From an uncultured Pseudomonadota bacterium (lineage in GTDB: Bacteria > Pseudomonadota > Gammaproteobacteria > Burkholderiales > SG8-39): DNA of 64,000 nt. Shown piece after piece: positions 48,121 through 63,729 of this stretch; position 1 is the stretch's first letter; each line of letters starts with the position of its first letter. The stretch spans positions 209,024-273,023 of the forward strand of contig CAIKRR010000014.1 of the NCBI GenBank assembly GCA_903829815.1, given 5' to 3'. The translations under genes were made by a program, and so were the position numbers. The notes under the pieces were generated by a model. The model was not told the origin of the DNA. It saw only the letters and a program-made list of their open reading frames with translations, and made no database searches.

Positions 48121-49813
48121 GCTCCGCAATCATCAGCGTCGGCGAATTGGTATTGCCCGAGCTGATGGTGGGCATCACCGACGCGTCCACCACGCGTAAC
48201 CGTTCGATGCCGCGCACCCGCAACTCGCTGTCGACCACCGCCAGTGGGTCGTCACGACGCCCCATGCGACAACTGCCGACCGGATGAAAGATGGTCGTTC
48301 CGACATCGCCCGCAGCTCGCTCGAGGTCAGCATCACTGACCAGGTGCGGGCCCGGCAGGAACTCCTCGGGGCGGTAGCGCGCGAGGGCACGACTTTCAGT
48401 CACGATCCGCCGCGTGAGCCGCAATGAATCGACGGCAACCCGACGATCTTCCGCCGTCGAGAGGTAGTTGAGCCTGATGGCGGGCGGCTCATGCGCATCG
48501 CTCGATCGCAGGCGCACGCTGCCGCGCGACGTCGGCTGCAGATTGCACACGCTCGCCGTGAACGCGGGGAACCGGTGCAGCGGTTCCCCGAAACGATCGA
48601 GTGACAGGGGCTGCACATGAAACTCGATATTCGGACGCACCTTCGAGGCATCGGACATCGCGAAGGCGCCCAGTTGCGATGGGGCCATGGCAAGCGGGCC
48701 GCTACGCGTCAGCGCATATTGCAATCCCATCCTCGCCTTGCCCCACCACGAATGCACCTGTTCATTGAGCGTCGGCACACCACTCACCTTGAACGCCATG
48801 CGCAGTTGCAGGTGATCCTGCAGATTGGCGCCCACCCCGGGCAGATCGTGCCGCAGATCGACACCGTGCGACTGCAGCACATCGCGCGGTCCGATGCCCG
48901 AGAGCTGCAGGATATGCGGGCTGCCGATGGCGCCGGCCGCAAGTACCGTCTCGGCGCGTGCAGCCGCCGAACGCACCACGCCATCCTGCTCGAAGACAAC
49001 ACCCGTACAGCGCGCCCCATCGAACTGCAGCTTGTGCACCAGGGCACCGGTGAGCACCGTCACATTGCCCCGGGCGATGGCAGGACGCAGGAACGCACGC
49101 GAGGCACTCCAGCGCACGCCGCGTCGCTGGTTCACTTCGAATCGTGCGACGCCGTGGTTGTTGCCGCGATTGAAGTCATCGGTGGCCGGTATGCCGAATT
49201 CGGTGGCTGCCTCGGTGAACGCATCCAGCAGTTTCCAGGAAAGCCTCTGCTTCTCCACGCGCCACCGACCCCCGCTGCCATGAAAGGCAGAGGCACCGCG
49301 CCAGTGGTCCTCGCTGCGCCGAAAGACCGGCAGCACGTTCTCCCACGACCAGCGACTGTCCCCCGTCACCGTCGCCCAGCCGTCGTAGTCCTCAGTCTGG
49401 CCACGCAGGTAGAGCATCGCATTGATCGATGAACAACCGCCCAGCACCCGGCCGCGCGCGTAATTGATCGAACGGCCATTGAGTCCGGCCTCGTCGACGG
49501 TACGAAAGCACCAGTCGGTGCGCGGATTGCCGATGCAATAGATGTAGCCCACCGGAATCTTCACCCAGATCCAGTCATCCGGAGGCCCGGCTTCGAGAAC
49601 GAGCACACGCACGGTCTGATCGGCCCCGAGCCGCTCGGCCATCACGCAACCGGCCGTGCCCGCCCCGATGATGATGTAGTCGAACTCACCGAGCCGCTGT
49701 GCTTCCGAGCCATCGGAAGAAGTATTGACGATCTGCACCACCGCTTGCCCCCAGTCAGACGAATCGACCCCGCTACGGCCCCGACCACTTGAATCGTGTT
49801 GCGCGCCGTTCAA
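48086..49813 (-). CDS. GMC-family FAD oxidoreductase (choline/alcohol dehydrogenase-like)
   Basis: Contains FDYIIIGAGTAGCVMAERL, GGCSSINAMLY and C-terminal PTISSGNTNSPTLMIAERAADL. In-frame GTGs at 49741 and 49738 are plausible shorter starts. Confidence 0.88.
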   Translation of the reverse strand: MNGAQHDSSGRGRSGVDSSDWGQAVVQIVNTSSDGSEAQRLGEFDYIIIGAGTAGCVMAERLGADQTVRVLVLEAGPPDDWIWVKIPVGYIYCIGNPRTDWCFRTVDEAGLNGRSINYARGRVLGGCSSINAMLYLRGQTEDYDGWATVTGDSRWSWENVLPVFRRSEDHWRGASAFHGSGGRWRVEKQRLSWKLLDAFTEAATEFGIPATDDFNRGNNHGVARFEVNQRRGVRWSASRAFLRPAIARGNVTVLTGALVHKLQFDGARCTGVVFEQDGVVRSAAARAETVLAAGAIGSPHILQLSGIGPRDVLQSHGVDLRHDLPGVGANLQDHLQLRMAFKVSGVPTLNEQVHSWWGKARMGLQYALTRSGPLAMAPSQLGAFAMSDASKVRPNIEFHVQPLSLDRFGEPLHRFPAFTASVCNLQPTSRGSVRLRSSDAHEPPAIRLNYLSTAEDRRVAVDSLRLTRRIVTESRALARYRPEEFLPGPHLVSDADLERAAGDVGTTIFHPVGSCRMGRRDDPLAVVDSELRVRGIERLRVVDASVMPTISSGNTNSPTLMIAERAADLMRGRQT

Positions 49814-49859
49814 GCAACCCGGTCACACCGTTGTACACCGCAGGGCACGACCGATGCCG

Positions 49860-49899
49860 ATGTCATCGCATTGCCATCATTCTGTCATCAGCGTGTCTC
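49860..49899 (+). promoter_or_regulatory. Tandem Pho-box-like array (four 7-nt repeats at 11-bp phasing)
   Basis: The sequence is aTGTCAT-cgca-TTGCCAT-catt-CTGTCAT-cagc-GTGTCTC. Matches to the CTGTCAT heptamer are 6/7, 5/7, 7/7 and 4/7. TGCAAT (49910..49915) lies 10 nt downstream as a possible -10, and the ATG is at 49942. Confidence 0.55.
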
Positions 49900-49941
49900 G
49901 CCCGAAAGGTGCAATACACCAACCCTTTCAGGCAAGGCTCG

Positions 49942-50748
49942 ATGAACGCGCGCGACACCCAATCGGAAGGCCTCATCCACCATCGTGCGATCTGGCTCTC
50001 GGACATTCACCTGGGCACCCGCGGCTGCCGCGCCGCCGATCTGCTGGAGTTTCTCCGGGTGCATGATGCCGATGTGATCTACCTGGTCGGCGACATCGTC
50101 GATGGCTGGCAGATCAAGCGCTCGTGGTACTGGCATCAGAGCCACAACGACGTGGTGCAGAAGATTCTGCGCAAGGCGCGCAAGGGTACCCGGGTGATCT
50201 ACGTCCCCGGCAACCACGACGAAGGCCTGCGCCACTTCACCGGCATGGACCTCGGACGCATCGAGATCGAACCCGAAGCCGTCCACACCACGCTCGATGG
50301 GCGTCGCTTGCTGGTCACCCACGGCGATCTCTTCGACGGAGTGATCCAGCGCGCGAAGTGGCTCGCCTATCTGGGCGACACCCTCTACATGCTGGCGCTC
50401 GAACTCAACCGGCACTTCAACCGCCTGCGGCAGCGCATGGGGCTGCCCTACTGGTCGCTCTCGCAGTACCTGAAACATCAGGTGAAAAATGCCGTCAGTT
50501 ACATCAGCGATTTCGAACAGGCCGTCGCCCACGAGGCGAAGCGCCGCGGTTTCGATGGCGTGGTGTGCGGCCATATCCACCAGCCGGCACTGCGCATGAT
50601 CGACGGCGTGCTGTACGCCAATGATGGCGACTGGGTCGAGAGCCTCACTGCGCTGGTTGAGACCACGTGCGGGGAACTGCAGATCGTACGGGCAGCCCCG
50701 ATCACCCATTCAGTGCCCGCAGCACGAGCGGCAGCAATGAGCGCCTGA
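49942..50748 (+). CDS. Calcineurin-like metallophosphoesterase, LpxH-related (PlcP-like phospholipase C candidate)
   Basis: Metallophosphoesterase motifs SDIHLG, GDIVDG, GNHDE, THGD and GHIHQP. GNHDE replaces the GNRD that I recall for bona fide LpxH. ATG at 49942. Confidence 0.8.
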   Translation: MNARDTQSEGLIHHRAIWLSDIHLGTRGCRAADLLEFLRVHDADVIYLVGDIVDGWQIKRSWYWHQSHNDVVQKILRKARKGTRVIYVPGNHDEGLRHFTGMDLGRIEIEPEAVHTTLDGRRLLVTHGDLFDGVIQRAKWLAYLGDTLYMLALELNRHFNRLRQRMGLPYWSLSQYLKHQVKNAVSYISDFEQAVAHEAKRRGFDGVVCGHIHQPALRMIDGVLYANDGDWVESLTALVETTCGELQIVRAAPITHSVPAARAAAMSA

Positions 50749-50813
50749 CTGCGAAGCAGCAAGGCGTGCATGACCGGCAGCGGGCATCAAGGCGCTCAAA
50801 CCGGACAAGCAAA

Positions 50814-50831
50814 GTGTAACGACCCTGTCAC
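50814..50831 (+). promoter_or_regulatory. Single Pho-box-like element upstream of the OlsB-like gene
   Basis: GTGTAAC-gacc-CTGTCAC has 7+4+7 architecture, and the second repeat matches CTGTCA(C/T). TACCAT (50842..50847) lies 10 nt downstream. The element is 58 nt before the ATG at 50889. Confidence 0.35.
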
Positions 50832-50888
50832 AAACCATCCCTACCATCGATCTGTTGGTGATGGATCGGGATCCACGCGAGAAGAGCC

Positions 50889-51731
50889 ATGCGGCACATG
50901 ACGGACCCAGGACTGCAAATGCGCCTGAACGAAAGCGGCACCGACCTGCGGATCGAGTTCGCTGCAACGCGTCAGGATCTGCTCGCAGCGCAGCGTCTGC
51001 GCTACCAGGTGTTTGCCGAGGAATTCGGTGCTGAATTCGATTGCCGGATTCCGGGCATCGACGCTGACATCTTCGATGCCTATTGCGATCATCTGCTGGT
51101 GCGAGATCGTCACAGTCTCGAAGTGGTGGGCACCTATCGCATGTTGCGTCCAGAGCAGGCGCGCGCGCTGGGCTGCTCATACGCCGACAGCGAGTTCGAT
51201 CTGAGCGGGCTTGCCGCCATGCGGCCCTGGATGGCTGAACTCGGTCGTTCCTGCGTTGCGCCGGGCTATCGAACCGGAGCCACCATACGACTGCTCTGGT
51301 CGGGGATCGGGCGCTTCATCCAGTCGCGCGGCTACCGTTACCTCATCGGTTGCGCAAGCGTGTCGACCCGCGATGGTGGCCATGTGGCTGCCAGCCTCTA
51401 CACCGCGCTCATGGGTCAACAGGCCGAGGGCGAAAGCTGGGGGGCGCGCCCTCACAAGCGACTGCCACTGGAAAACCTGCGTTGTGACCTGCCCACTGCC
51501 ACCCCGCCACTCATCAAGGGCTATCTGCGCTGCGGCGGGCGAATCATCGCCGAGCCTGCCTGGGACACCGACTTTGGCACGGCCGACTTCCTGATGATGC
51601 TCGACCTCGCGACGATGGCACCACGCTATGCACGGCACTTTTTCGGCGATGCGCCCCTTGGCTTGCAGGACCCTGCAGCAGTCATCCCGCGCGAGCCCTA
51701 CCTCGGCGAGCTGGAGCCGATCGCCGCATGA
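50889..51731 (+). CDS. GNAT-family N-acyltransferase, OlsB-like (ornithine/amino-acid lipid N-acyltransferase family)
   Basis: Contains AAQRLRYQVFAEEFGAE, CDHLLV, VGTYRML, SEFDL, ELGRSCVAPGYR, LIGCASV and PPLIKGYLRCGG, which together match the OlsB/hemolysin-like Acetyltransf_5 architecture. Alternative ATGs at 50898 and 50919. Confidence 0.78.
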   Translation: MRHMTDPGLQMRLNESGTDLRIEFAATRQDLLAAQRLRYQVFAEEFGAEFDCRIPGIDADIFDAYCDHLLVRDRHSLEVVGTYRMLRPEQARALGCSYADSEFDLSGLAAMRPWMAELGRSCVAPGYRTGATIRLLWSGIGRFIQSRGYRYLIGCASVSTRDGGHVAASLYTALMGQQAEGESWGARPHKRLPLENLRCDLPTATPPLIKGYLRCGGRIIAEPAWDTDFGTADFLMMLDLATMAPRYARHFFGDAPLGLQDPAAVIPREPYLGELEPIAA

Positions 51732-51788
51732 GAGCGGTCCAATGAATTCGGGCAAGCCACTCAAGGCGTTGCCAACCGGAGATCAAGC

Positions 51789-52502
51789 ATGAAACCGAGT
51801 GTGATCATCGTCGAGGATGACGCAGCGATTCGCGACCTGCTGCAATACAGCTTCGAGCGCGCCGGCTTTCGGGTACTACCTGCGGCTTCGGCGGAGCGAG
51901 CCCTCGAACTGTTGAAAGAGCGCCTGCCCACGGTGCTCGTGATCGACTGGATGCTGCCTGCGCTATCGGGTCTTGCGCTGGTGGAGAAGTTGCGTCGAAC
52001 GAGTCGTACCGCCGATCTGCCCCTGCTGATGCTGACCGCACGAGGCAGCGAGCAGGACCGCGTAGGCGGGCTCGAAGCGGGCGCCGACGACTACGTCGTC
52101 AAGCCTTTCAGTCCGAGCGAACTGATCGCACGGGTGAACGCACTGGTCAGGCGCCGCGCCCCTGAATTTGCCGGTGGCAGCATTACGCTGGGCGCACTCG
52201 AACTGGACAGCGATGCACGCACGGCCACCGTCGATGGCACTCGAGTTGCGCTGCGCCAGGTGGAGTTCAGGCTGCTCAAGCTTTTCATGGCACACCCCGA
52301 TCGGGTGTTCACCCGCAACGAACTGCTCGACCGTGTCTGGGGCGAGGACGTGTTCGTCGAGGAACGCACGGTCGATGTGCATATCCGGCGGGTTCGCCTC
52401 GCCCTGGGCAAGCCCTACCGCGACCTCATTTCGACGGTGCGTGGCGGCGGCTACAAGCTGGATCCTGCGATGCTCGAAGCCGCCGAGGCCAGCCTCGCCT
52501 GA
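51789..52502 (+). CDS. OmpR/PhoB-family response regulator (PhoB-like)
   Basis: Receiver domain (VEDD, VIDWMLPALSG, MLTARG, KPF) and winged-helix domain (VWGEDVFVEERTVDVHIRRVRLAL) closely follow the E. coli PhoB pattern. No histidine kinase gene is adjacent. Confidence 0.9.
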   Translation: MKPSVIIVEDDAAIRDLLQYSFERAGFRVLPAASAERALELLKERLPTVLVIDWMLPALSGLALVEKLRRTSRTADLPLLMLTARGSEQDRVGGLEAGADDYVVKPFSPSELIARVNALVRRRAPEFAGGSITLGALELDSDARTATVDGTRVALRQVEFRLLKLFMAHPDRVFTRNELLDRVWGEDVFVEERTVDVHIRRVRLALGKPYRDLISTVRGGGYKLDPAMLEAAEASLA

Positions 52503-52635: not shown

Positions 52636-53334
52636 ATGAATGGAATCGTGGTTCGCAACATACAGCGCGCCGATGCAAGCGTGGTCGAGAGTCTTGGCCG
52701 CTTTGGCGTCGCCACCATCCACGAAGCCCAGGGCCGCAGCGGGCTCATGAAGACCCATATGCGCCCCATCTACGAGGGCGCGCGCACCGTCGGAACGGCA
52801 ATCACGGTGCTCACGCATCCGGGAGACAACTGGATGCTGCATGTCGCCATCGAGCAGATTCGTCCCGGCGACGTCGTCGTGGCCGCCTGCTCGGCCGACA
52901 ACACCGATGGCATGTTCGGCGAATTGCTCGGCACCCAGTTCAAGACACACGGTGCACGCGGCCTGATCCTGGATGCAGGCTGCCGCGACGTCAGCGATCT
53001 GAAGAAGCTTGGCTTTCCGGTGTGGTCGCGTGCCATCTCGGCCAAGGGCACCGTCAAGTCGACGGTCGGCTCGGTAAACATTCCGGTGGTCTGCGCAGGC
53101 GCGCTCGTCAACCCGGGCGACGTGATCATCGCCGACGATGATGGCGTGGTCGTGGTGCCACGTGCCGATGCAGCACGCGTTGCTGCCGAAGCCGAAGCCC
53201 GTGAAGCCAAGGAAGCGATCGCGCGTGGGCACTACGCCGCCGGCGAACTGAGCCTGGACCTGAACAACATGCGCGAAGCCCTCGAGCGCGCCGGCCTGCG
53301 CTACGTCGACGATCTGCCTCACGGGGGTGCCTGA
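52636..53334 (+). CDS. RraA-fold 4-hydroxy-4-methyl-2-oxoglutarate / 4-carboxy-4-hydroxy-2-oxoadipate aldolase-like protein
   Basis: Contains VATIHEAQGR, GELLGTQFKTHGARGLILDAGCRD, and the LigK/GalC-type C-terminal extension. Confidence 0.85.
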   Translation: MNGIVVRNIQRADASVVESLGRFGVATIHEAQGRSGLMKTHMRPIYEGARTVGTAITVLTHPGDNWMLHVAIEQIRPGDVVVAACSADNTDGMFGELLGTQFKTHGARGLILDAGCRDVSDLKKLGFPVWSRAISAKGTVKSTVGSVNIPVVCAGALVNPGDVIIADDDGVVVVPRADAARVAAEAEAREAKEAIARGHYAAGELSLDLNNMREALERAGLRYVDDLPHGGA

Positions 53335-53353
53335 GCACCCGGGCGCGACGGCG

Positions 53354-54448
53354 ATGCTGCGTAGCGGAGACGCACGCCGGCGCGGTGTCGGTTTGCTGCG
53401 CCGGATCGCGCGCCTTGCGTGGGTCTCAGCGTTCTGCGCAGGCATCGTCCCGACCACAGCGCACGCCCAGAGCGGCACCACGGTCGGTACGGGTCTGAGC
53501 GCCGGCGCCAGTGCGGGTGTGGGTGTGGGTGCCAGCCCGGGTACCCCTGCAACATGGCCGCAGCGCCCGGTTCGCATCGTCGTTCCCTTCGATGCGGGCG
53601 GCATCGCCGACATCACGGCTCGCGTACTCGCCGAACGCCTCACCCAATCGACCGGCCAGCAGATCGTGGTCGAGAACAGGCCCGGCGCCGGGGGCGTCGT
53701 AGCCACCGAAACCGTGGTGAAGGCAGCCCCCGATGGCCACACGCTGCTTCTCATCAGCAACGGCAACGCGGTCAGTGCCACGCTCTTTCGCACGCTCCCC
53801 TACGACATCGTGCGTGACGTGGCACCGGTGTCGACGCTCGGATTCTTCGACATCGTCATTCTGGCCAATGGCGACTCCCGGTATGCCACCCTGGCCGACC
53901 TGCTCGCCGATGCGCGCGCGCGTCCGGGCAAGTTGAACGCCGGTACGATCAGCATCGGCAGCACCCAGAACCTGTCGGCAGAACTCTTCAAGTCGATGGC
54001 GGGCCTTGATCTGCAGACCATCCCCTTCAAGAGCACATCGGCGGTGGTCTCCGCCTTGCGCTCGGGCGATGTGCAGGTGGGCTTCGAACTGCTCGGGCCG
54101 GTCTATGCCCAAGTACGGGCCGGTGCCCTGCGGGTTCTTGCAGTGGCTTCGAATCGACGTTTTCCGGGGCTGCCTGCGGTGCCCACAGCCATCGAGGCAG
54201 GGCTTTCAGGCTACCAGGCCTCGTCATGGAATGGCATCGCGGCACCTGCGGCAACCCCGCGCGCCATCATCGACCGGATCGCAGCCGAGATGGCGCTTGC
54301 GCTGGCGGTGCCCGAGCTGCGGCAGCGCCTGTCGGACCTCGGGGTGGAAGCCCGCGCGAGCACGCCTGCCGCCCTGCACGAGTTGCTGGTGGCCGAGATC
54401 GCCAAGTGGAAGGCCGTCATCGAGCGCGCGCACATCGAACGGCAGTAA
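53354..54448 (+). CDS. Bug/TctC-family substrate-binding protein
   Basis: A signal peptide and a Gly/Ala/Ser/Val-rich linker precede PVRIVVPFDAGGIAD. Confidence 0.85.
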   Translation: MLRSGDARRRGVGLLRRIARLAWVSAFCAGIVPTTAHAQSGTTVGTGLSAGASAGVGVGASPGTPATWPQRPVRIVVPFDAGGIADITARVLAERLTQSTGQQIVVENRPGAGGVVATETVVKAAPDGHTLLLISNGNAVSATLFRTLPYDIVRDVAPVSTLGFFDIVILANGDSRYATLADLLADARARPGKLNAGTISIGSTQNLSAELFKSMAGLDLQTIPFKSTSAVVSALRSGDVQVGFELLGPVYAQVRAGALRVLAVASNRRFPGLPAVPTAIEAGLSGYQASSWNGIAAPAATPRAIIDRIAAEMALALAVPELRQRLSDLGVEARASTPAALHELLVAEIAKWKAVIERAHIERQ

Positions 54449-54483
54449 GGCACCTCACCTCTCCCTCCCCCGAGGCACTACTG

Positions 54484-55347
54484 ATGAAGCCCATCCCCGC
54501 CCCCGACCCCGCACCCATCAAGCCGCACACCGCGATGCCTGCGCTCGCCTGCGATGCCCATTGCCATATCTTCGGACCGGCCGCGCAGTTTCCCTTCTCG
54601 CCCACGCGACGCTACACGCCGCCCGATGCGCCCAAGGCGATGCTGCGTGCACTGCATGCGCATCTGGGCATCTCGCGCGTGGTGCTGGTGCAAGCCAGTT
54701 GCCACGGCCCCGACAACAGCGCCATGCTCGATGCCATCGCCGACTCGGACGGCGCCTACCGCGGCGTGGCGATGGTGAAGACCGACGTCACTGACCGCGA
54801 GCTGCAGTCCCTGCATGACGGTGGTGTGCGCGCGGTGCGATTCAACTTCGTGCAGCATCTGGGCGGCGCCCCCGACGTGCCTGCCGTGGAACGCGTCATC
54901 GAGCGTATCGCGCCCATGGGCTGGCATGTGGTGCTGCACCTCGATGCCGAAGACATCACCACCTACCGGGGTTTTCTCGACCGCCTGGCGGTGCCCTTCG
55001 TCATCGACCACATGGGTCGGGTCGATGCCTCGCAGGGTCTCGACCAACCCGCCTTCGTGCACCTGCTCGATCTGATGCGTGATGAGCGTGCCTGGGTCAA
55101 GGTGAGTGGCGGCGAGCGCATCTCACGCAGCGAGCGCCCGTTCACCGATGCCGTGCCTTACGCAGCAGCACTCATCAAGGCAGCCCCGGACCGAGTGCTG
55201 TGGGGCACCGACTGGCCACACCCGAACATCCGGGTGATGCCCAACGATGGCGAACTGGTCGACCTGTTTGCCCGCTACAGCGACGATGAGGCGGTGCGGC
55301 ACAAGGTACTGGTCGACAATCCGACCCGCCTGTACTGGGCTGACTGA
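54484..55347 (+). CDS. Amidohydrolase_2, LigI-like (2-pyrone-4,6-dicarboxylate hydrolase/lactonase family)
   Basis: Contains CDAHCHIFGP, VIDHMGR and WGTDWPHP, as in the LigI-type lactonase family. ATG at 54484. Confidence 0.8.
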   Translation: MKPIPAPDPAPIKPHTAMPALACDAHCHIFGPAAQFPFSPTRRYTPPDAPKAMLRALHAHLGISRVVLVQASCHGPDNSAMLDAIADSDGAYRGVAMVKTDVTDRELQSLHDGGVRAVRFNFVQHLGGAPDVPAVERVIERIAPMGWHVVLHLDAEDITTYRGFLDRLAVPFVIDHMGRVDASQGLDQPAFVHLLDLMRDERAWVKVSGGERISRSERPFTDAVPYAAALIKAAPDRVLWGTDWPHPNIRVMPNDGELVDLFARYSDDEAVRHKVLVDNPTRLYWAD

Positions 55348-55356
55348 AACGCCTGA

Positions 55357-55695
55357 TCAAGCCTCGGGCAAGCGCTCGTCGGGTGGCCCGATCTCGCTCA
55401 CCACATCGCGAATCCAGTCCTTGTTGCGCAAGGGCTCGATACGCATCTCGCGTGCTTCCAGGCGCGTGGTGCAGCCATACACCGTCTTGCCATCGACCAT
55501 CACCATGCATTCCTTGCAGGCATTGGCGTTGATGCAGGCAAAGCGCAGCGCAAGGGTGCGGTCGAAGTGCGAGCGGATGTAGCGCAGACCATCGAGCACC
55601 GAATTGCCCGACTCGAACGGCACCTCATACTGCTCGTAATGACCCTCCTCGGGGGGGGCGCCGCGCCAGACCTTCAATTGGGCAACCGACTTCAT
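55357..55695 (-). CDS. 2Fe-2S-only SdhB/FrdB-like iron-sulfur protein (truncated architecture)
   Basis: The 112-aa product aligns by eye to the N-terminal [2Fe-2S] domain of SdhB (LDGLRYIR...RFACINANACKECMVMVDGKTVYGC). It has no CxxCxxCxxxCP ferredoxin motifs. 4-nt overlap with the flavoprotein gene. Confidence 0.75.
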   Translation of the reverse strand: MKSVAQLKVWRGAPPEEGHYEQYEVPFESGNSVLDGLRYIRSHFDRTLALRFACINANACKECMVMVDGKTVYGCTTRLEAREMRIEPLRNKDWIRDVVSEIGPPDERLPEA

Positions 55696-57452
55696 GCTGC
55701 AACTCCAGCGTTGACAGGCACCCGCGCCAACGCGATCTGCGGGTTCGCCTGCGATTGAACGAGCGCGATCGCATCGGTCGGGCCGGCAAGACGGCTTTCC
55801 AGGTGCAGCGTCCAGTTCGGATCAAGGCCCGGGTGATCCTCTCGCTGGTGCGCACCGCGGCTCTCGGTGCGCTCGAGCGCTGCCACCGTAACCGTCTCGG
55901 CCACCAGCGTCATGTTGCGCAGGTCAAACCAGTCGAGCCAGACCGGATCGAACGCCCCCGGTGCAAAGGACGGTGCCGCATGGAAGCGCGTGGCAAGCGC
56001 TCGTACGCCGTCGAGCCCCTCGCGCAAACCGGCCTCGGTGCGAAAAGGCCCGACCTTGCGCGACATGATGGTTTGAAGTTCATCGATGGCAGCCGCCGTG
56101 TTGGCCTCGGTCGGCAACGTGCCGGGGGTGAGCGTTGCCTCGATCAGACGCTGTGCCTGCGCTCTCACCCGCTCGATCCGGGAAGCGCTCGCCACCGGAT
56201 CAGCCACTGCGTCCGCTGCCAGCACGGACACCGCCTGGGCCGCACTCGCGCCCGCGCGGCGACCGAAGGCAAAGGCCTCGGTGATGGCATTGCCCGAGAG
56301 ACGGTTGGCGCCGTTCGCGCCACCGACCGCCTCGCCACCGACGAAGAGCCCCGGCACCACAGTGGCCATGCGCGTATCGACCGCAACGCCACCCATGTGG
56401 TAGTGGGCAATCGGGGCAACTTCGATCGGCGTCTTCGCCAGATCGATGCCGTTCTTCGCAAGGCGATCGACCACCGGCCCGAAGGCGGCACGCAACTGCT
56501 CGGGGGGCAGATGCTCGAAGCTGAGCCAGGCCCCGCCATGCGGCGATCCGCGACCCGCCTCGACCTCCTTGTAGATGGCATACGTGGCCTGATCACGCGT
56601 GATGGTGTAACGACCACCGTCCTCGGTGCCATACCGATGCGTGAACTCCTCCTTCAGACCATTCAGGAGGCGACCACCCAACTTGTATCGGAAAGGGTCC
56701 CACATGATCGGATCCATCCCGATCATGCGCGGTGCCAGATGCCCGATCGGAAAGAACTGCACGAACTCCATGTCGATAAGGGGTGCACCAGCCCGCAGGG
56801 CGAGCGCGTAGGCATCACCCCCCATGTTGGACGACGCACTGTTGCGCGCATAAAGCCGCGTGAGACCGCCGCAAGCGAGCACCACGGCACCAGCCACGAT
56901 GGTCACCGCCTCGCCCGTGGTCAGATGAACCCCCACCGCACCGGCACAGCGGCCTTCGTGAACGACCAGATCGGTGATGCACAGATCACCCACGCGTTGC
57001 ACGAGGGGCGACCGAATCACCTGCGTGCGCAACGTGCGCGACACCGCCGGCCCGGTATTGAGGAAGTCGACATAGACGCAGCGCGGGCGATCATGGCCGG
57101 GTGCCATCACCGGGGTCAGCTGCCCCTCGGCACGCGCCCAGCCCACACCCCAGGTGTCCATCTCGCGTACGCACTCGAGGCCCTCTTCGCACAGCAGGCG
57201 CGACAGATCGGGTTCGCACAGTTCGCGTCCCGCCTGGAGCGTGTCGGCCAGATGAGCCTCCACGCTGTCATCGGCCGGCTCGCCCATGGCAGCGGCCACG
57301 GTCATCTGCGCCATCACGGTGGCGCCGCTGCGTCCGATCAGACCGCGATCGGCCAGGATCACACGGGATCCGAGGCGCGCGGCCTCGACAGCGGCATACA
57401 TGCCAGCGCCACCGGCGCCAACCACCAGTACATCGGTTTCCAGGTTTCTCAT
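55692..57452 (-). CDS. FrdA/SdhA/NadB-superfamily FAD flavoprotein (divergent)
   Basis: Contains the dinucleotide fold VVGAGGAGMYAA, HYHMGGV and GANGANRLSGNA. The canonical RSHT and QFHPTG motifs read RSGA and QFFPIG here. Confidence 0.85.
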   Translation of the reverse strand: MRNLETDVLVVGAGGAGMYAAVEAARLGSRVILADRGLIGRSGATVMAQMTVAAAMGEPADDSVEAHLADTLQAGRELCEPDLSRLLCEEGLECVREMDTWGVGWARAEGQLTPVMAPGHDRPRCVYVDFLNTGPAVSRTLRTQVIRSPLVQRVGDLCITDLVVHEGRCAGAVGVHLTTGEAVTIVAGAVVLACGGLTRLYARNSASSNMGGDAYALALRAGAPLIDMEFVQFFPIGHLAPRMIGMDPIMWDPFRYKLGGRLLNGLKEEFTHRYGTEDGGRYTITRDQATYAIYKEVEAGRGSPHGGAWLSFEHLPPEQLRAAFGPVVDRLAKNGIDLAKTPIEVAPIAHYHMGGVAVDTRMATVVPGLFVGGEAVGGANGANRLSGNAITEAFAFGRRAGASAAQAVSVLAADAVADPVASASRIERVRAQAQRLIEATLTPGTLPTEANTAAAIDELQTIMSRKVGPFRTEAGLREGLDGVRALATRFHAAPSFAPGAFDPVWLDWFDLRNMTLVAETVTVAALERTESRGAHQREDHPGLDPNWTLHLESRLAGPTDAIALVQSQANPQIALARVPVNAGVAA

Positions 57453-57622
57453 GGTGTCCTGCTGAGTCTGTGAGGCAAGGTCAGGTGGACTGGCGTGTCG
57501 AACAGGCCGTCAGGCGGCCTCGAGCGAGGCGGCCTTCGACACCCGGTCAAGCGGTGAATGGGACGGGCACCTGCGAAAGAGAGGGCGCGACCGGCCTGGT
57601 CGGCCGGGCCGAGCCGTCTTGA

Positions 57623-58270
57623 TCAGATGGCGTCAGCCTGCCCGGCGGGATCGGCTGCCTTCACCGCATCGAGCACTGCGCAGTTCTCGTAGATGGCCAT
57701 CGTGCGCGGGTACGCGGTGAGGTCGCACTTGAACCGCTTTGCGTTCTGGATCTGCGGTACCAGACACACATCGGCCATGGTGAACTGATTACCGAGGCAG
57801 AAACGACCCGACTGCCCTTGCGCCGCGAGAAACTGCTCGAAGCCTGTCAGCCCCTCGGCGATCCAGTGGGCGTACCACTCACCGTTGATCTTCTGATCAT
57901 CGAGGCCACAGGCGTTCTTCAGGTACTTGAGCACACGCACATTGTTGAGCGGGTGAATCTCGCAGCCGATGATCTGCGAGGCGGCACGCACATACCACTT
58001 GTACTCGATGCCCCCGGGCATCAGGGACGGCGTCGGATAGCGCTCATCGAGATACTCGATCATGGCCATCGACTGGGTGAAGACATGCCCCGCATCATCG
58101 ACGAGCGAGGGCACCAGACCCTGCGGGTTGAGCGCGAGATAGTCGGCGGCGCGCTGCTCCATCTTCGGCAGGCTGACGTACTGGGACTCGTAGGGCAGGC
58201 CCTTCCAGGCCAGCGCGATGCGCAGGCGAAAGGAGGTCGATGAACGAAAGAAGGTATAGAGCTGCATCAT
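57623..58270 (-). CDS. Zeta-class glutathione S-transferase: maleylacetoacetate/maleylpyruvate isomerase
   Basis: Contains LYTFFRSSTSFRLRIALAWKG (zeta-class SSxxxRxRIAL motif) and NPQGLVPSL. ATG at 58270 or 58267. Confidence 0.85.
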   Translation of the reverse strand: MMQLYTFFRSSTSFRLRIALAWKGLPYESQYVSLPKMEQRAADYLALNPQGLVPSLVDDAGHVFTQSMAMIEYLDERYPTPSLMPGGIEYKWYVRAASQIIGCEIHPLNNVRVLKYLKNACGLDDQKINGEWYAHWIAEGLTGFEQFLAAQGQSGRFCLGNQFTMADVCLVPQIQNAKRFKCDLTAYPRTMAIYENCAVLDAVKAADPAGQADAI

Positions 58271-58295
58271 GGGGGCGTGGAGTCCTGCCTGAGGC

Positions 58296-58652
58296 CTACT
58301 TGTTGAGGATGTGCTCGGGCGTGCTCGAGACAATCTTGCCGTAGTCGGGAACGAACTTGCCGCCCTCGATCAGGCTCACGAACGCAGGCTTCATCTCGAC
58401 CAGCATGCGACGGATGCGCGCGTGTTCCTCGATGTCGGACCACTCGGCAATCAGCCAGAAGTGACGCGAATCCTCGGTGTCCTGCACGAGCACGCCGTCC
58501 TTCACCTGCGCCGCCGACTTGTGCATCGGGTTGGTGTCGGAATAGTCAAACTCGTTGAAGAGTTCGACGAACTGCGCTTCGCAGCCTTCCTTCACCCGAA
58601 AATCGTAGATGTGAAAGTAGTTGCCCATCGAGGCAAGCGGCACCATGGCCAT
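58296..58652 (-). CDS. Small ABM-like (antibiotic biosynthesis monooxygenase / ferredoxin-like fold) protein
   Basis: The ATG at 58652 is preceded by AGGAGA. The pattern FHIYDFRVKEG...FWLIAEWSDIEEH fits the ABM alpha+beta fold. The family call is tentative. Confidence 0.55.
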   Translation of the reverse strand: MAMVPLASMGNYFHIYDFRVKEGCEAQFVELFNEFDYSDTNPMHKSAAQVKDGVLVQDTEDSRHFWLIAEWSDIEEHARIRRMLVEMKPAFVSLIEGGKFVPDYGKIVSSTPEHILNK

Positions 58653-58769
58653 ATCGAAGCTCTCCTGCAAAAGTGGATGGCCCGAAGGGCCACTGATGAA
58701 GCGGGTCGCTCGCTCGCAACGAGCGCCCCGCGCCGGATCCGTCGAGAATCCTACCGTTTGTAGCTTTCG

Positions 58770-59549
58770 TCAAGCACTGGGGCGGTGTTCTTGCTGCGAC
58801 GCATGCCAGGGCAGGGCCCACCGCTCGATGCGTGCCAATGCCGCAAACAGCAGCATCCCCATGATGGCCAGCAGCAATACGGCCGCAAATACCCGGGCGG
58901 TGTCGAAGGTGCCCTGCGCCGAAAGAATCACGTAGCCCAGACCACGCTGTGATGAGACGAACTCGCCCACGATGGCACCCACCAGCGCGAGCGAGATGGC
59001 CACCTTCATGCCGGCAAACATGCTGGGCAGGGCACACGGAAAGCGGATGCGCCAGAGCATCTTCGCGCGACTGCCACGCAAGGCACGCCCCAGGTCGAGG
59101 ATGTCGGCGGGCACCGACTTCAACCCGAGCACGGTATCGATCACGATGGCAAACACGGCAATCAGAAAGGCGATGGCCAGCTTGGGTTCGGCGCCGGTAC
59201 CGAGCCAGATGACAAAGAGCGGCGCAATCGCCACCTTGGGCACGCTGTTGAGGCCAACGATGAGCGTATAGATCGTCTTCTCGAGCAGCGCCGACTCGAC
59301 GATGACCACCGCCAGCCCGACCCCCACCACCACGGCCAGACCAAAACCGCCGACGGTCACGAGCAGCGTGTACCAGGCATGCCCCATGTACCAGGGAAAC
59401 TCGCTGGCCAGTTCACGCAGCACGGCCGATGGCGGCGGCAGGATGATCGGCTTCACATGCATCCAGGCCACCAGGAACTCCCACAGGAGCACCAGCACCG
59501 CGATCGATACGGCCGTGACCAGAATGCCCTGCCAGTCGCGGGTCTTCAC
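58770..59549 (-). CDS. ABC transporter permease (NitT/TauT/SsuC type)
   Basis: Six TM helices and the EAA-like loop LGRALRGSRAKMLWRIRFPCALP. Confidence 0.88.
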   Translation of the reverse strand: MKTRDWQGILVTAVSIAVLVLLWEFLVAWMHVKPIILPPPSAVLRELASEFPWYMGHAWYTLLVTVGGFGLAVVVGVGLAVVIVESALLEKTIYTLIVGLNSVPKVAIAPLFVIWLGTGAEPKLAIAFLIAVFAIVIDTVLGLKSVPADILDLGRALRGSRAKMLWRIRFPCALPSMFAGMKVAISLALVGAIVGEFVSSQRGLGYVILSAQGTFDTARVFAAVLLLAIMGMLLFAALARIERWALPWHASQQEHRPSA

Positions 59550-60334
59550 GCGTCCTCCTTGAGCAGCCCCATGCCCTCGAAGAGGGTGCGGATGCGCGTC
59601 GAGTAGCCATGGAAGCGTTCACCCGTGCGCACCGCCAGCCGGCGCGGGCGCGGAATGTCCACTTCGATCACATCGGCAATGGAACCCGGGCGTGGTGAGA
59701 ACACCACCACCCTGTCGGCCAGAAATACGGCCTCGCTGATGCTGTGGGTGACAAAAAGCACGGTCTTGTGCTCGGCCAGCCACAGGCGCTGCAATTCGAT
59801 GTTCAGCTGATCGCGGGTCAAGGCATCCAGCGCGCCGAAGGGCTCGTCCATCAGGAGGAGCTTGGGGTCATCAACCAGTGCGCGGCAGATCGCCACGCGC
59901 TGGCGCATGCCCCCGGAGAGCTGCGCCGGGTACCGACCCTCGAATCCCTCGAGCCCCACCATCTTCAGGAGCGAACGGGCACGACCGCGCGCAGCGGCCA
60001 CATCACCACCCCGAAACTCGATCGGGAGCATCAGATTGTCGAGCACCGAGCGCCACTCGAGCAGGGCATCGCGCTGAAACACGATGCCCAAGTGTTCGGG
60101 CGGCGCGGTGACTGGCACACCGGCCACGCTGATCACCCCGGAACTGGGCGTATCCAGACCGGCGACACAGCGCAGCAAGGTGCTCTTGCCGCAGCCACTG
60201 GGGCCCAGGATGCTCACGAACTCGCCCGGGCGGATGTCGAGCGATACCTCGGCAAGGGCCGTGATACCCGCATCGGCGAAAACGCGGGTTACCCGGTCGA
60301 TACGAATGCCCGCTGCCTCGTGTCCGACGCTCAT
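59546..60334 (-). CDS. ABC transporter ATP-binding protein (NitT/TauT type)
   Basis: Walker A GPSGCGKST, signature LSGGMRQR and Walker B LLLMDEPF. 4-nt overlap with the permease. Confidence 0.92.
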   Translation of the reverse strand: MSVGHEAAGIRIDRVTRVFADAGITALAEVSLDIRPGEFVSILGPSGCGKSTLLRCVAGLDTPSSGVISVAGVPVTAPPEHLGIVFQRDALLEWRSVLDNLMLPIEFRGGDVAAARGRARSLLKMVGLEGFEGRYPAQLSGGMRQRVAICRALVDDPKLLLMDEPFGALDALTRDQLNIELQRLWLAEHKTVLFVTHSISEAVFLADRVVVFSPRPGSIADVIEVDIPRPRRLAVRTGERFHGYSTRIRTLFEGMGLLKEDA

Positions 60335-60371
60335 GCTCGTTCGCCGACAAAGGCCGATTGTTGCATCGAAC

Positions 60372-61421
60372 TCATCGTGCGCCGATCTTCTTCATCAGGT
60401 CGAGATCGAGCATGTCGTTGGTGTAGTACTCGGCTGCATTGGCCGCGGTGATGAGCTTGGCATTTTCCATGACCTTGAGGCCGTTGGTCCACTCGACCGG
60501 CACCATCACGCCAGGCGGTTGCCCACCGCTCTGGGGCGTATTGAAGAAGGTCATGAACTCCTCGACCATACCCTTCATCGACTTGGGGTCGAGCTTGCTC
60601 TGGGCGCGCTGGGCGAGGATGGCGGCCACGGCCTCATCCACATGCGCCTTGTCCCTCTGGATGTAGATCCAGGTCCCGGCCATGACGCTGGCAAACTTGC
60701 GCAGCGCCACGGGCTTGGCCTTGATCGAGTCTTCGCTCGCGATGAGACCAAAGCTGGGAAACTGCAGACCGACGTCGGCAAAGAGGATGGCCTCGGACTG
60801 ACGCGGTCCTTCGACCACCGGCAGCACGTTCGGTACCGATGAGAAGACGCCATCGCCACGACCGGCGATATAGCTCGGAATCTTCGAGGCGGCATCGACC
60901 GCCAGCAGTTCGACCTGATCACGCTTCAGGCCACCGGCTGCGAGGAAGGTATCGAGAAAGGGGGCTTCGAGCGAGCCGGCGGTGAAGATGAGCTTCTTGC
61001 CGGCCAGGTCCTTGGGCGACTTGATGCTGCCGCCCTTGGGAATCATGAGACCGATATCGTTCTTGCGGGCGAAGTTGGCGATTGCCTTGATCGGCAGGCC
61101 TTTGTTGCGCGCGATGATCATGGGCGCAAGGCTCGCATGACCGACATCGAACTTGCCAGTGCCGACCAGCTGCACGGTAGTCACTGAGCCGTTGCCGTCC
61201 TCGACGACCAGCTCGAGCCCCTGCTCCTTGAACCAGCCTCGCTGGTTGGCCAGATGCAGCGCGGCGTGCGAGCCCCAGGTCACCCAGTCAAGACGAACCG
61301 TGAGCTTCTCGAGGGGTTGAGCCAATGCCCCCTGACTGGCCAATCCGAGACTGGCAGTCAAAGTGGCGGCAACGGCAGCGCCAAGCGCGCGTTGCAGGAA
61401 GGGGCGTCGATTGCCGGTCAT
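60372..61421 (-). CDS. ABC transporter substrate-binding protein (NMT1-like) with Tat/Sec leader
   Basis: The leader MTGNRRPFLQRALGAAVAATLTASLGLASQGALAQ precedes an NMT1-like fold. ATG at 61421. Confidence 0.85.
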   Translation of the reverse strand: MTGNRRPFLQRALGAAVAATLTASLGLASQGALAQPLEKLTVRLDWVTWGSHAALHLANQRGWFKEQGLELVVEDGNGSVTTVQLVGTGKFDVGHASLAPMIIARNKGLPIKAIANFARKNDIGLMIPKGGSIKSPKDLAGKKLIFTAGSLEAPFLDTFLAAGGLKRDQVELLAVDAASKIPSYIAGRGDGVFSSVPNVLPVVEGPRQSEAILFADVGLQFPSFGLIASEDSIKAKPVALRKFASVMAGTWIYIQRDKAHVDEAVAAILAQRAQSKLDPKSMKGMVEEFMTFFNTPQSGGQPPGVMVPVEWTNGLKVMENAKLITAANAAEYYTNDMLDLDLMKKIGAR

Positions 61422-61493
61422 GTCAGTGCTCTCCGTGAGTCTTGTCCACCTGAGCCGGTGGCAAGGTTGATCAAACTCGTCAGACACGGGCAG

Positions 61494-62858
61494 CTACCCG
61501 CGCCCACCACCTGCGCCAAACAGGGCGAGCACCCGATCACGCAGCACTCGCCACAGCAAACCCCAGCCATTCACTGCCATCGCACGACCACCACGGCTGG
61601 CCGCAGAGCTGTCTGCGGATACCCCCGCGCCATCGGCGTCTCCGGCACCGGCACCAGCACCAGCACCATCCGCGTGCGTAACACCGGCCCGAATCAGTCG
61701 GGCATCGAGTGTCGCACCAAAATCGGCCACGAGACGCTCGGCAAACTCGCGCACGAGCGAGGGTCGCGAAAACTGTGCCAAGGGCCCCTGCAGGCTGTAG
61801 TCCATCGTGATGACCACCCGGGTAGAGTCGGCCACCAGAGCGCTCTGGGCTGCGCTTGCCTCACCGGTGGCGACACGCCCCGTGAGTGCGCCACCCACCG
61901 GGGCCGTCTGCGGTTCGAGCCGATAGACGATATCGGCGCGAGCGCGTGACTGGCTCAGGTTGTCCTGACCGGCGCCCCGCAGGCGCCCGGTGCGGTGCGC
62001 ATCATCACGCTCGTGCGTGGCGGCACCGGCAAAGGCGGCCTTCATCGGGCCAAAGCGCACCACGATCCGGGCGCGTACCCGATCGCCATCGACCTCGACC
62101 TCTTCGGCGCCGGGCAAACAGGCCGCTACCGCTTTCACATCGGCAAAGGCATGCCAGACATCAGTGGGTGCGCCGCGCATGACAAACGCCACTTCAATGC
62201 GGTTGCTGCCGGCAGCGGGCGTGACCGGGACAGCGACGCTCGCGGTTCCAGCAGCAGGCGCAGCACCCGCGGTTGCTGAAGCCACAGACCCCGGTGCACC
62301 AGAGACCAGAAGAGGTGCATCACCGGGCACGAAGGACGGCATCGGTGCGTGTTCAATCGCTGACCGGGCGCTCTCGAGGACGCTTGCATTGGCACTGCGC
62401 CGCGACTCGAGCACATCGAGAATGGCCCGCACGATGCCGGCAAAGCCGGTGCATCGGCACAGATTGCCCGACATCTCGACTCGAACCCGGCGCTCGTCAG
62501 CCTCGGGCACGCGCAGCACCACATCGCGCGCGGCAATCAGCATGCCTGGTGTGCAAAAGCCGCACTGCAAGGCGTGGTGCCGGGTGAATGCAGCGCGCAG
62601 ATCGCGCATCACCGGATCCGTCTCGAAGCCCTCGATGGTGCGCACCGCGCTGCCTTCACAGGCGACGGCAAAGGCAATGCAGGCACGCGCCGGGCGATCA
62701 TCGATGAGCACCGTGCAGGCGCCACAGACGCCATGCTCACAGCCCAGATGGGTGCCGGTGAGCCGCATGGTTTCGCGCAGAAAATCACCCAGATGCTGGC
62801 GCGGTTCGGCCAGTGCCTCATGGGTCTCGCCATTGACGGTGAGAGTGATGGGGTTCAT
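61494..62858 (-). CDS. Fusion protein: (2Fe-2S) small subunit of xanthine-dehydrogenase/CO-dehydrogenase family (CoxS-like) + CoxG/SRPBCC domain
   Basis: The N-terminal half has CEHGVCGACTV, QCGFCTPGM and CRCTG. The C-terminal half (FVMRGAPTDVWHAF...MDYSLQGPLAQFSR) matches CoxG-type SRPBCC. It ends in a Gly/Ala/Asp low-complexity tail. Confidence 0.85.
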   Translation of the reverse strand: MNPITLTVNGETHEALAEPRQHLGDFLRETMRLTGTHLGCEHGVCGACTVLIDDRPARACIAFAVACEGSAVRTIEGFETDPVMRDLRAAFTRHHALQCGFCTPGMLIAARDVVLRVPEADERRVRVEMSGNLCRCTGFAGIVRAILDVLESRRSANASVLESARSAIEHAPMPSFVPGDAPLLVSGAPGSVASATAGAAPAAGTASVAVPVTPAAGSNRIEVAFVMRGAPTDVWHAFADVKAVAACLPGAEEVEVDGDRVRARIVVRFGPMKAAFAGAATHERDDAHRTGRLRGAGQDNLSQSRARADIVYRLEPQTAPVGGALTGRVATGEASAAQSALVADSTRVVITMDYSLQGPLAQFSRPSLVREFAERLVADFGATLDARLIRAGVTHADGAGAGAGAGDADGAGVSADSSAASRGGRAMAVNGWGLLWRVLRDRVLALFGAGGGRG

Positions 62859-63727
62859 GACTGGAACACCTGTCGGGTCGCGCGCAGGAGCGCCGTGACA
62901 TGGAGCTTGCGCTCGACCGCGTCGAGCCCGGAGACCGCATCGACCAACGCCTGATCGACAGCGTTCGATGTGAGCGCCACACTGCCCAGACGGGCGACGG
63001 CAGCGGCCAACCCGGCAAGCGCCACCGGGGCCCCGCCGAGGGCGCCGGCCACGATGCGTGCATGGCCACTCGCAGGGTCGAACACGGCGGCAGCGCTCGC
63101 CTCGGGAAACTCGCCCGTCTTGCGACAGATTTTCCAGTAGCCCCAGCGAGCCTGGGCCGACAGCACCGGGCCCTCGACAGCCTCGATGATTTCGTCATCG
63201 GCGAGCACGGTGCTGAAACCGGCGCGCATGAATTCGGCGGCACTCACGTCGCGCCGCCCGCGTGGCCCGATGATGCAGACCCGGGCGCCGAGCGCATTGA
63301 GCGCAAGCGGCCAGTCGGCAGCCGGATCGGCATGCGCCAGGCTGCCCCCGATGGTGCCGCGATTGCGAACGGCACGGTAGGCGATACCCGTTGCCACATG
63401 ACGCATGAACCCGCGGCCATCGAGCAGCGCCGGGCTGTCTTCGATCTCGGCATGGGTGACCGCAGCACCGATGCGCCAACGTGCTTGCGCCGCGGGGAGC
63501 GCCGAGTTCGCGGGCAGGCCCTGCGATTCGATCCGCCGCAAGGCCTCGATGCGCGACAGATCAATCACATGACTGGGCCGCGCCAGTCGCAGGTTGAGCA
63601 TCGGTCCGAGCGACTGCCCACCGGCCAGGGGCTTGGCATCGCCCGCGCCCAGCGCATGCGCGCCCAGTGTGTGCACCGCCGATGCCAGATCGACCGGACG
63701 TTCGTAGGCAAACCGGGCTGCCTTCAT
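62855..63727 (-). CDS. FAD-binding medium subunit of molybdenum hydroxylase (CoxM/XdhB-like)
   Basis: Contains LAGGQSLGPML and RNRGTIGGSLAHADPAAD motifs. 4-nt overlap with the small-subunit gene. Confidence 0.85.
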   Translation of the reverse strand: MKAARFAYERPVDLASAVHTLGAHALGAGDAKPLAGGQSLGPMLNLRLARPSHVIDLSRIEALRRIESQGLPANSALPAAQARWRIGAAVTHAEIEDSPALLDGRGFMRHVATGIAYRAVRNRGTIGGSLAHADPAADWPLALNALGARVCIIGPRGRRDVSAAEFMRAGFSTVLADDEIIEAVEGPVLSAQARWGYWKICRKTGEFPEASAAAVFDPASGHARIVAGALGGAPVALAGLAAAVARLGSVALTSNAVDQALVDAVSGLDAVERKLHVTALLRATRQVFQS

Positions 63728-63729
63728 GG

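Follow-up and report, generated by a model that had tools for sequence, protein, structure and literature searches.

Soluble enzymes of the FrdA type that have exchanged the distal carboxylate clamp use urocanate, acrylate or cinnamate as substrates, and TfrA, the flavoprotein of the methanogen thiol:fumarate reductase, lacks the histidine that binds flavin adenine dinucleotide (FAD) covalently. Among other flavoenzymes, proteins of about 100 amino acids (aa) with a single [2Fe-2S] cluster serve as electron outlets, as in HcnA of hydrogen cyanide synthase, the gamma subunit of D-hydroxyproline dehydrogenase and the opine oxidases. The part of a 2023 review of complex II that catalogues soluble homologs lists only the flavocytochrome c fumarate reductases, the yeast soluble fumarate reductase and NadB. 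Here we describe a gene pair of another form, a two-subunit FAD/[2Fe-2S] protein that is absent from that catalogue, found in 64,000 nucleotides (nt) of DNA from an uncultured Pseudomonadota bacterium of the Burkholderiales lineage SG8-39 (assembly GCA_903829815.1, contig CAIKRR010000014.1, positions 209,024 to 273,023; hereafter the window). The pair consists of a flavoprotein of the FrdA/SdhA superfamily and a small iron-sulfur (Fe-S) partner, and we conclude that it is genuine and maintained by selection, a soluble offshoot of complex II with two subunits.

A sequence-only reading of the window had proposed a flavoprotein of 586 aa and a partner of 112 aa on the minus strand, and the open reading frame listing and translations gave both at those lengths (Table 1). 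It had also taken the partner to be translationally coupled; this is correct, the flavoprotein stop and the Fe-S gene start overlapping in an ATGA with a GGAG 9 nt upstream of the second start. The flavoprotein matches FAD_binding_2 (1e-57) and Succ_DH_flav_C (2e-19) in Pfam and carries the VVGAGGAG, HYHMGG and GANRL motifs, so that the FAD fold already recognised by eye is indeed kept. Its AlphaFold (AF2) model, made from a 65-sequence alignment, has a predicted local distance difference test (pLDDT) score of 94 and a predicted template modelling (pTM) score of 0.94, and Foldseek superposed it with template modelling (TM) scores of 0.87 on E. coli FrdA (1kf6_A) and 0.83 on Sdh1 SdhA. All four SdhA/FrdA domains are intact in this model, and so are the cofactor sites.

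The partner had been read as the N-terminal [2Fe-2S] domain of SdhB, and several lines of evidence bear this out. Its sole Pfam match is Fer2_3 (1e-16, residues 6-101), its cysteines follow the pattern C54-x5-C60-x2-C63-x11-C75, with a first spacing of C-x5-C as against C-x4-C in SdhB and FrdB, and its AlphaFold model corresponds to the N-domain of SdhB/FrdB only (TM 0.79-0.81 by query, about 0.38 by target). Neither Pfam nor the model gives any sign of a 4Fe-4S/3Fe-4S ferredoxin domain, the chain stopping at residue 112, and no CCG domain was found with Pfam or NCBIfam. The absence of membrane-anchor genes, also noted at first reading, held up as well: the operon contains no SdhC/D-like gene, its sole membrane protein being a permease of the ATP-binding cassette (ABC) type, and none of the anchor subunits (SdhC/D, FrdC/D or type E equivalents) occurs among the genes annotated around the pair, whether in this genome or in the 12 related loci whose gene lists carry Pfam annotation. 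No signal peptide or hydrophobic segment was seen in either protein on inspection by eye, and the flavoprotein has no fused cytochrome or flavin mononucleotide (FMN)-binding domain. A promoter and terminator scan of 55200-58800 gave nothing exceeding shuffle expectation.

The active site has been altered. Residue equivalences were taken from HMMER alignments to the solved chains 7d6v_A (M. smegmatis Sdh1 SdhA, E 1e-86) and 1kf6_A and its variants (E. coli FrdA, E ~1e-54). As the first reading had claimed, the flavoprotein has RSGA where SdhA and FrdA read RSHT, and QFFPIG in place of QFHPTG: A44 lies under the covalent His of FAD attachment, F234 under FrdA H232 of the distal carboxylate clamp, and I236 under T234 of the hinge. 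Two further changes were found, T244 of the distal carboxylate clamp to W251 and E245 of the proton relay to D252. The remaining catalytic positions are kept, namely R255 (FrdA R248, proton relay), R286 (R287, acid/base), and H350 and R384 (H355 and R390, proximal carboxylate clamp). A MAFFT alignment with the canonical SdhA encoded elsewhere in the same genome (contig C94; 32% identical to the flavoprotein, with TRSHTV, QFHPTG and TEGVRGEGG) gave the same losses, and the idea that the missing His and Thr are present in shifted positions fails, since the HMMER, MAFFT and Foldseek alignments restore neither residue.

These replacements are shared by the whole family, in which F234, I236, W251 and D252 are invariant. 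Among 120 homologs of 61-83% identity, the A44 column holds Ala or Gly in all 120 (MAFFT), R286, H350 and R384 are essentially invariant, and the segment QFFPIGHLAPR[LM][IV]GMDPIMWDPFRYKLGG is nearly invariant; the altered loop must therefore be under selection. His238 and Arg242, 4 and 8 residues past F234, are both invariant. The partner is equally well conserved, with C54, C60, C63 and C75 invariant in 36 homologs. Among those listed, the homologs of the Fe-S protein measure 87-152 aa, mostly 105-125 aa, and tblastn placed the Fe-S gene immediately after that of the flavoprotein in all 87 loci examined.

By its scores, the flavoprotein falls below every curated SdhA, FrdA, NadB and TfrA threshold by a wide margin. 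Its best NCBIfam match is the TfrA model, at 362.7 against a cut-off of 718, followed by the actinobacterial Sdh/Frd model PRK07803 (342 against 819) and sdhA_frdA_Gneg (TIGR01812; 303.5 against 567). TIGR01816 gave 256 against 727 and TIGR01176 gave 246 against 933, the NadB models were all missed (the best at 265.7 against 639; TIGR00551 at 260 against 452.75), and the flavocytochrome c model TIGR01813 gave 114.6 against 285.45. The Fe-S protein likewise scored 57 against 88 with dhsB (TIGR00384) and 56.7 against 385 bits with TfrB, where it matched only positions 6-101 of a 488-position model. The pair might nevertheless have belonged to a described family of this architecture, as the first reading allowed, but all curated NCBIfam models were missed and no such characterised family was found; nor did we find in the literature any published study of a characterised member or of a 2Fe-2S-only SdhB pair.

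An exhaustive search of 50%-identity cluster representatives placed three full-length clusters with the query, at 61%, 55% and 51% identity, and the next full-length relatives were at 42% or below. In the 107 nearest full-length representatives, R286 is kept in 104, H350 in 103 and R384 in 105, while a His at the FrdA H232 position occurs in 18 and the covalent-FAD His in just four (P0297, P0319, P0385 and P0388); the cap loop varies clade by clade. We built a FastTree of 106 sequences, a quick method giving local support only, from which the variable loop was meant to be excluded by columns indexed on an earlier alignment and possibly inexact. In this tree the query's family is a 100%-supported clade within an 85-sequence branch that holds no covalent-FAD His and is made up of 74 sequences with neither the His nor HP, seven keeping the HPx motif and four of the query's family; the remaining 21 sequences lie across the root, and the five canonical ones cluster there. 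In four distant members whose loops differ (P0259, P0267, P0285 and P0309; 36-38% identity) the flavoprotein gene adjoins a Fer2_3-only gene of 107-114 aa, and the two-subunit design therefore marks the whole radiation, beyond the query's family. The pair thus belongs to a large radiation of SdhA-like flavoproteins that lack the covalent-FAD His and are paired with a miniature 2Fe-2S partner. Distant members at three loci (L093, L094, L095) lie beside either a creatinase-like peptidase, a pyridoxal phosphate enzyme and an FMN reductase, or an omega-aminotransferase, a zinc alcohol dehydrogenase and a luciferase-like oxidoreductase, contexts which hint that some clades of the radiation act on amino or amine acids.

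The query's own subfamily is patchy, being common in a few soil and freshwater lineages and rare overall. A scan of one genome per species yielded at least 550 stretches encoding relatives, and the best 80 of these are nearly all metagenome-assembled genomes (MAGs) of Xanthobacteraceae (Pseudolabrys, Rhodoplanes), other Hyphomicrobiales and Burkholderiales, one MAG being 96% identical. Of 400 genomes sampled evenly across the phylum, only one besides the window's own had an ortholog at E 1e-150 or better, and a tblastn search of 72,556 plasmids gave no match at E 1e-60.

The first reading saw in this pair a soluble oxidoreductase of two subunits whose substrate is neither succinate nor fumarate, a view that all the evidence gathered here supports. 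We go one step further and suggest, with moderate confidence, that it is a cytoplasmic FAD/[2Fe-2S] heterodimer that has a monocarboxylic enoate or alkanoate as its substrate and probably works as a reductase. The large subunit would hold FAD non-covalently in an intact SdhA/FrdA fold, with the small subunit beside the flavin exchanging single electrons with a separate partner. By alignment, the retained machinery comprises the acid/base R286, the relay D252/R255 and the H350/R384 clamp for one carboxylate, and the clamp for a second carboxylate (FrdA H232 and T244) has been exchanged for a nearly invariant loop that is hydrophobic or otherwise different. FrdA-type hydride and proton chemistry could then take place next to a single carboxylate, interconverting a 2-enoate and the saturated acid or catalysing a closely related oxidation beside the carboxylate, and the far end of the substrate would not be a carboxylate; a ring-bearing, keto or amide group is likely there. 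As the flavin appears to be non-covalent, the reductive direction would be more likely, or else an oxidation of the NadB kind, with a substrate of lower potential; E. coli FrdA mutants without the histidyl-FAD link, from work of Blaut et al. in 1989, reportedly reduce fumarate and no longer oxidise succinate.

In this operon the substrate might be a trans-enoate supplied by the zeta-class glutathione S-transferase (GST), which is encoded directly upstream of the flavoprotein gene across a gap of 170 nt and may act on the ring-fission product of the island's bicupin dioxygenase. Since such an isomerase makes trans-enoates from maleyl-type products, and FrdA-type enzymes use trans-enoates, a fumarylpyruvate-type 4-oxo-2-enoate is our best specific guess, a tentative and rather doubtful one. 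Candidate redox partners are encoded alongside: the molybdenum (Mo) hydroxylase with CoxG could be the donor in a hydroxylation-reduction loop, CoxG could be a membrane or quinone adaptor if the enzyme is a dehydrogenase, or a Rieske ferredoxin could take part. A more general proposal, which we regard as speculative and improbable, is that the pair is one substrate-specific member of a large enzyme class, soluble kin of complex II made of a non-covalent FAD subunit and a ferredoxin-like subunit with one cluster, whose exposed 2Fe-2S cluster plugs into Mo-hydroxylases or Rieske proteins, or reaches quinone via CoxG. If true, it would mean NAD-independent redox loops in aromatic and heteroaromatic breakdown in which, for example, the electrons of a hydroxylation at once reduce the ring-fission enoate.

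Several points weigh against the reductase proposal. The zeta-class GST adjoins the pair in one lineage only (4 loci) and not family-wide, and the near-invariance of the family's active site points to a single substrate shared across widely differing contexts. To judge from the alignment, the invariant H238, R242 and K257 of the new loop could still form a site for another anionic group, and a non-covalent flavin is compatible with the oxidation of lower-potential substrates, NadB being an example. Finally, the neighbours have to be read with care: genes were called in 87 loci and clustered, and cluster representatives were annotated. The counts that follow are restricted to the 60 loci that have 6 kb or more of sequence to each side; related Xanthobacteraceae MAGs predominate among them, and the counts do not represent independent events.

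With that proviso, the family's neighbours agree with those of the window in pointing to aromatic-acid metabolism. CoxG is the most persistent companion of the pair (37 of 60 loci, 25 of these without CoxL within 8 kb), followed by a UbiD-family decarboxylase (26), TctC (25), a MetE-like protein that clears PRK06520 (23), a degenerate FtsZ-like protein of 170 aa (22), CoxL (19) and a small AndAb/HcaC-like Rieske ferredoxin (18). One recurrent operon has the order CoxG-CoxM-CoxL-CoxS-flavoprotein-FeS-UbiD. Two other arrangements deserve mention in their own right. A soluble protein of about 170 aa, whose N-domain has a degenerate FtsZ/tubulin-like look and which has no Pfam or NCBIfam match, is encoded immediately before CoxG upstream of the pair (L006:864-1376, L016:8904-9416, L017:8939-9508 and about 20 other loci). 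In 18-23 of the 60 loci, for example at L062:3778-5109 (minus) and L021:8321-8635 (minus), the CoxG-flavoprotein genes have upstream of them a divergent pair made up of the MetE-like protein and the Rieske ferredoxin, with no oxygenase alpha subunit nearby.

The prominence of CoxG is one reason to consider that the same heterodimer runs the other way, as a dehydrogenase of a saturated acid (or of an amine or hydroxy acid beside the carboxylate) that sends electrons via 2Fe-2S to the respiratory chain, with CoxG (SRPBCC) as a membrane or quinone adaptor replacing SdhC/D. CoxG recruits carbon monoxide dehydrogenase to the membrane in Oligotropha, and in this family it is not only the commonest neighbour but is seen in three different gene arrangements: free-standing with the degenerate FtsZ-like gene, in the recurrent operon given above, and fused to CoxS in this window. 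The hosts are aerobic, catabolic dehydrogenases being the rule there, and UbiD enzymes take 2-enoic and aromatic acids, the product class of such a dehydrogenase. However, CoxG is also an ordinary Mo-hydroxylase accessory, the loci with CoxG alone are close kin whose synteny may simply be inherited, no quinone site could be identified, and C-C desaturation of simple acids is disfavoured by non-covalent FAD. We regard the dehydrogenase as the less likely reading.

A second alternative is that the pair is mainly an electron-supply module, substituting for a reductase by passing electrons from an organic acid to Rieske oxygenases, Rieske ferredoxins or the Mo-hydroxylase in an NAD-independent loop. 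Class I oxygenase reductases use FAD together with a plant-type 2Fe-2S cluster; Rieske alpha/beta genes unaccompanied by a reductase gene share the operon here and in L004 and L011, and adjoin the pair in L009, and the small Rieske ferredoxin counted above lies near the pair in 18 of 60 loci. The genome as a whole (4.2 Mb) argues otherwise. It has 43 Rieske-domain hits, mostly in frames sized like an oxygenase alpha subunit, as against 6 FNR-type NAD_binding_1 domains and a single copy of the flavoprotein. Oxygenases without a local reductase are thus the norm in this genome, which has a very large oxygenase repertoire sharing few reductases, and a general role as Rieske-oxygenase reductase is unlikely on the same figures. 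Most family loci, moreover, are without a Rieske oxygenase, and we know of no FrdA-type protein that supplies electrons to an oxygenase. We give this alternative little credence.

An ordinary additional isozyme of succinate dehydrogenase/fumarate reductase, L-aspartate oxidase or thiol:fumarate reductase is very unlikely indeed. The fold is the same and the best hidden Markov model matches are to TfrA, actinobacterial Sdh/Frd and sdhA_frdA_Gneg, but these scores, like that with TIGR00551, are far under the cut-offs, the dicarboxylate-binding His and Thr are missing, the partner has neither 4Fe-4S/3Fe-4S nor CCG domains, and the genome has its canonical SdhA elsewhere. A decaying or catalytically dead paralog, which the loss of residues essential in SdhA/FrdA might suggest, is hardly credible when neither reading frame is broken, the replaced loop and the partner's Cys ligands show the conservation described above, at least 550 species-representative matches exist, and the pair is kept together at every one of the 87 loci.

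Table 1. Features of the window and its upstream continuation (positions are those of the window unless a locus is named)
Feature	Position	Strand	Basis or remark
Fe-S partner, 112 aa, [2Fe-2S]-only SdhB N-domain	55357-55695	minus	Fer2_3 only, Cys pattern, fold
Flavoprotein, 586 aa, FrdA/SdhA superfamily	55692-57452	minus	open reading frame listing and translation, Pfam, alignments
Zeta-class GST, maleylacetoacetate/maleylpyruvate-type cis-trans isomerase	57623-58270	minus	TIGR01262 maiA, 250.8 bits against a cut-off of 171
Conserved 124-aa protein	58296-58670	minus	between ABC permease and zeta-class GST
NitT/TauT-type ABC importer: permease, ATPase, NMT1-type binding protein	58770-61487	minus	BPD_transp_1, ABC_tran, NMT1
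Mo-hydroxylase subunits: CoxS-CoxG fusion and CoxM	61494-64000	minus	Fer2_2 and COXG; FAD_binding_5
CoxS-CoxG fusion, 454 aa	61494-62858	minus	
CoxL, Rieske oxygenase alpha/beta, 4,5-dihydroxyphthalate decarboxylase homolog, amidase	beyond the window, upstream (L008)		
Dihydroxyphthalate decarboxylase homolog and amidase-signature amidase, upstream pair	L008:5054-7468	minus	
Convergent trio: LigK-type 4-carboxy-4-hydroxy-2-oxoadipate/4-hydroxy-4-methyl-2-oxoglutarate (CHA/HMG) aldolase, Bug/TctC receptor, LigI/4-sulfomuconolactone-hydrolase-like Amidohydro_2	52636-55347	plus	
Phosphate-starvation lipid module	49789-52502	plus	
Rest of island: second dihydroxyphthalate-decarboxylase-like gene, second amidase, PhtC-like class II aldolase/decarboxylase, TctC, bicupin, LysR regulator, GMC oxidoreductase	41158-49813		tblastn with L004 genes, Pfam, NCBIfam
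Bicupin ring-cleavage dioxygenase	45818-46810	plus	
Dihydroxyphthalate decarboxylase homolog and amidase-signature amidase, second pair	41158-43709	plus	

Judging by its gene content, the pair sits in a catabolic island for aromatic (poly)carboxylates and their amides (Table 1). It forms the end of a long minus-strand gene run that extends past the window edge and reads, in order, amidase, 4,5-dihydroxyphthalate decarboxylase homolog, Rieske oxygenase alpha/beta, CoxL, CoxM, CoxS-CoxG fusion, NMT1-type binding protein, ABC ATPase and permease, 124-aa protein, zeta-class GST, flavoprotein and Fe-S protein. The upstream decarboxylase homolog matches PDB 9jp7_A at E 1.5e-101 and has no Pfam or NCBIfam model, and the Rieske alpha/beta subunits are AndAc/AndAd-like, below cut-off. 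In the convergent trio, the LigK-type aldolase clears TIGR02798 (352.9 against 304.5), and the Amidohydro_2 gene, with a likely start near 54484, has a SlmHylase score of 271.7, below the cut-off of 500. Both the island gene set and its zeta-class GST are syntenic in L004, L012 and L013; the set occurs with the Mo-hydroxylase in the 96% MAG and without it in two metagenomic loci of 73-76% identity. The 124-aa protein is 91% identical to a 120-aa gene at the same place in L004 and has no Pfam match above cut-off and no NCBIfam or PDB match, so that an ABM label considered for it was not confirmed.

Other observations concern the island itself. Its CoxS-type subunit, with two [2Fe-2S] clusters, is fused to the CoxG/SRPBCC domain, and in related loci CoxG is a separate protein of about 150 aa. 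Two separate pairs of a dihydroxyphthalate decarboxylase homolog and an amidase-signature amidase are present, and in L065 and L067 decarboxylase homologs directly follow the Fe-S gene. The GMC oxidoreductase and LigK aldolase genes, which adjoin in the syntenic L004, are here separated by the phosphate-starvation lipid module (metallophosphoesterase, OlsB-like acyltransferase and PhoB-like regulator), so that the module looks like an insertion into the island. The island resembles pyridine-carboxylate clusters, for which reason we considered PicB, the four-component 6-hydroxypicolinate monooxygenase of the pic cluster. It was rejected, PicB1-4 being ordinary Rieske oxygenase components according to the published paper. 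The 6-hydroxynicotinate reductase of the Azorhizobium/Bradyrhizobiaceae nicotinate pathway likewise found no support: it is homologous to the E. barkeri enzyme and is encoded in another cluster. Both candidates thus come from families other than that of the present pair.

Public annotations call these flavoproteins 'FAD-binding protein' or 'succinate dehydrogenase/fumarate reductase flavoprotein subunit', and the ESM Atlas offers automatic names only, such as 'FAD-binding protein family'. For metabolic reconstruction, the label 'succinate dehydrogenase/fumarate reductase flavoprotein' is almost certainly wrong. The family is large, mis-annotated and experimentally approachable, a subfamily within a much larger radiation with hypervariable substrate loops. 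Were one member worked out, a step now missing from aromatic-acid catabolic islands could be assigned, and it would become clear how a flavoprotein with a single-cluster outlet finds its redox partner.

How, then, does the pair compare with known systems? With the complex II dimers SdhA/SdhB and FrdA/FrdB it shares the four-domain flavoprotein fold, the FAD Rossmann motif, the acid/base Arg, the His/Arg carboxylate clamp, a partner with the SdhB N-domain fold and four [2Fe-2S] cysteines, and the position of the Fe-S gene directly after the flavoprotein gene, and the closest solved structures are M. smegmatis Sdh1 (7d6v/7d6x) and the E. coli quinol:fumarate reductase (1kf6), at TM 0.83-0.87. 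Unlike complex II, it has no histidyl-FAD residue, its H232/T234/T244/E245 positions read F/I/W/D, it is without the 4Fe-4S/3Fe-4S domain and membrane subunits, and it lies under all curated thresholds. NadB is also soluble, with non-covalent FAD, the same fold and the same Arg/His/Arg core, but it has QFHPT, where this flavoprotein reads QFFPI, and acts alone, without an Fe-S subunit. Methanogen TfrAB resembles the pair in being soluble with two subunits; TfrA, in contrast, is fumarate-specific, and TfrB, with its 488-aa model, has extra clusters and CCG domains. The HcnA-type subunits differ in belonging to the Fer2_4 family and in serving flavoproteins of a DAO-type fold. The soluble FrdA-type enoate reductases (Shewanella flavocytochrome c3 fumarate reductase, UrdA, and the acrylate and cinnamate reductases) share solubility, non-covalent FAD and the Arg/His/Arg chemistry with our flavoprotein, whereas they are without Succ_DH_flav_C and receive their electrons through cytochrome or FMN domains fused to them where the present enzyme has a separate 2Fe-2S subunit. 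Those of them that do not act on fumarate swap the distal clamp for another group, and it is they that provide the closest working analogy for this enzyme.

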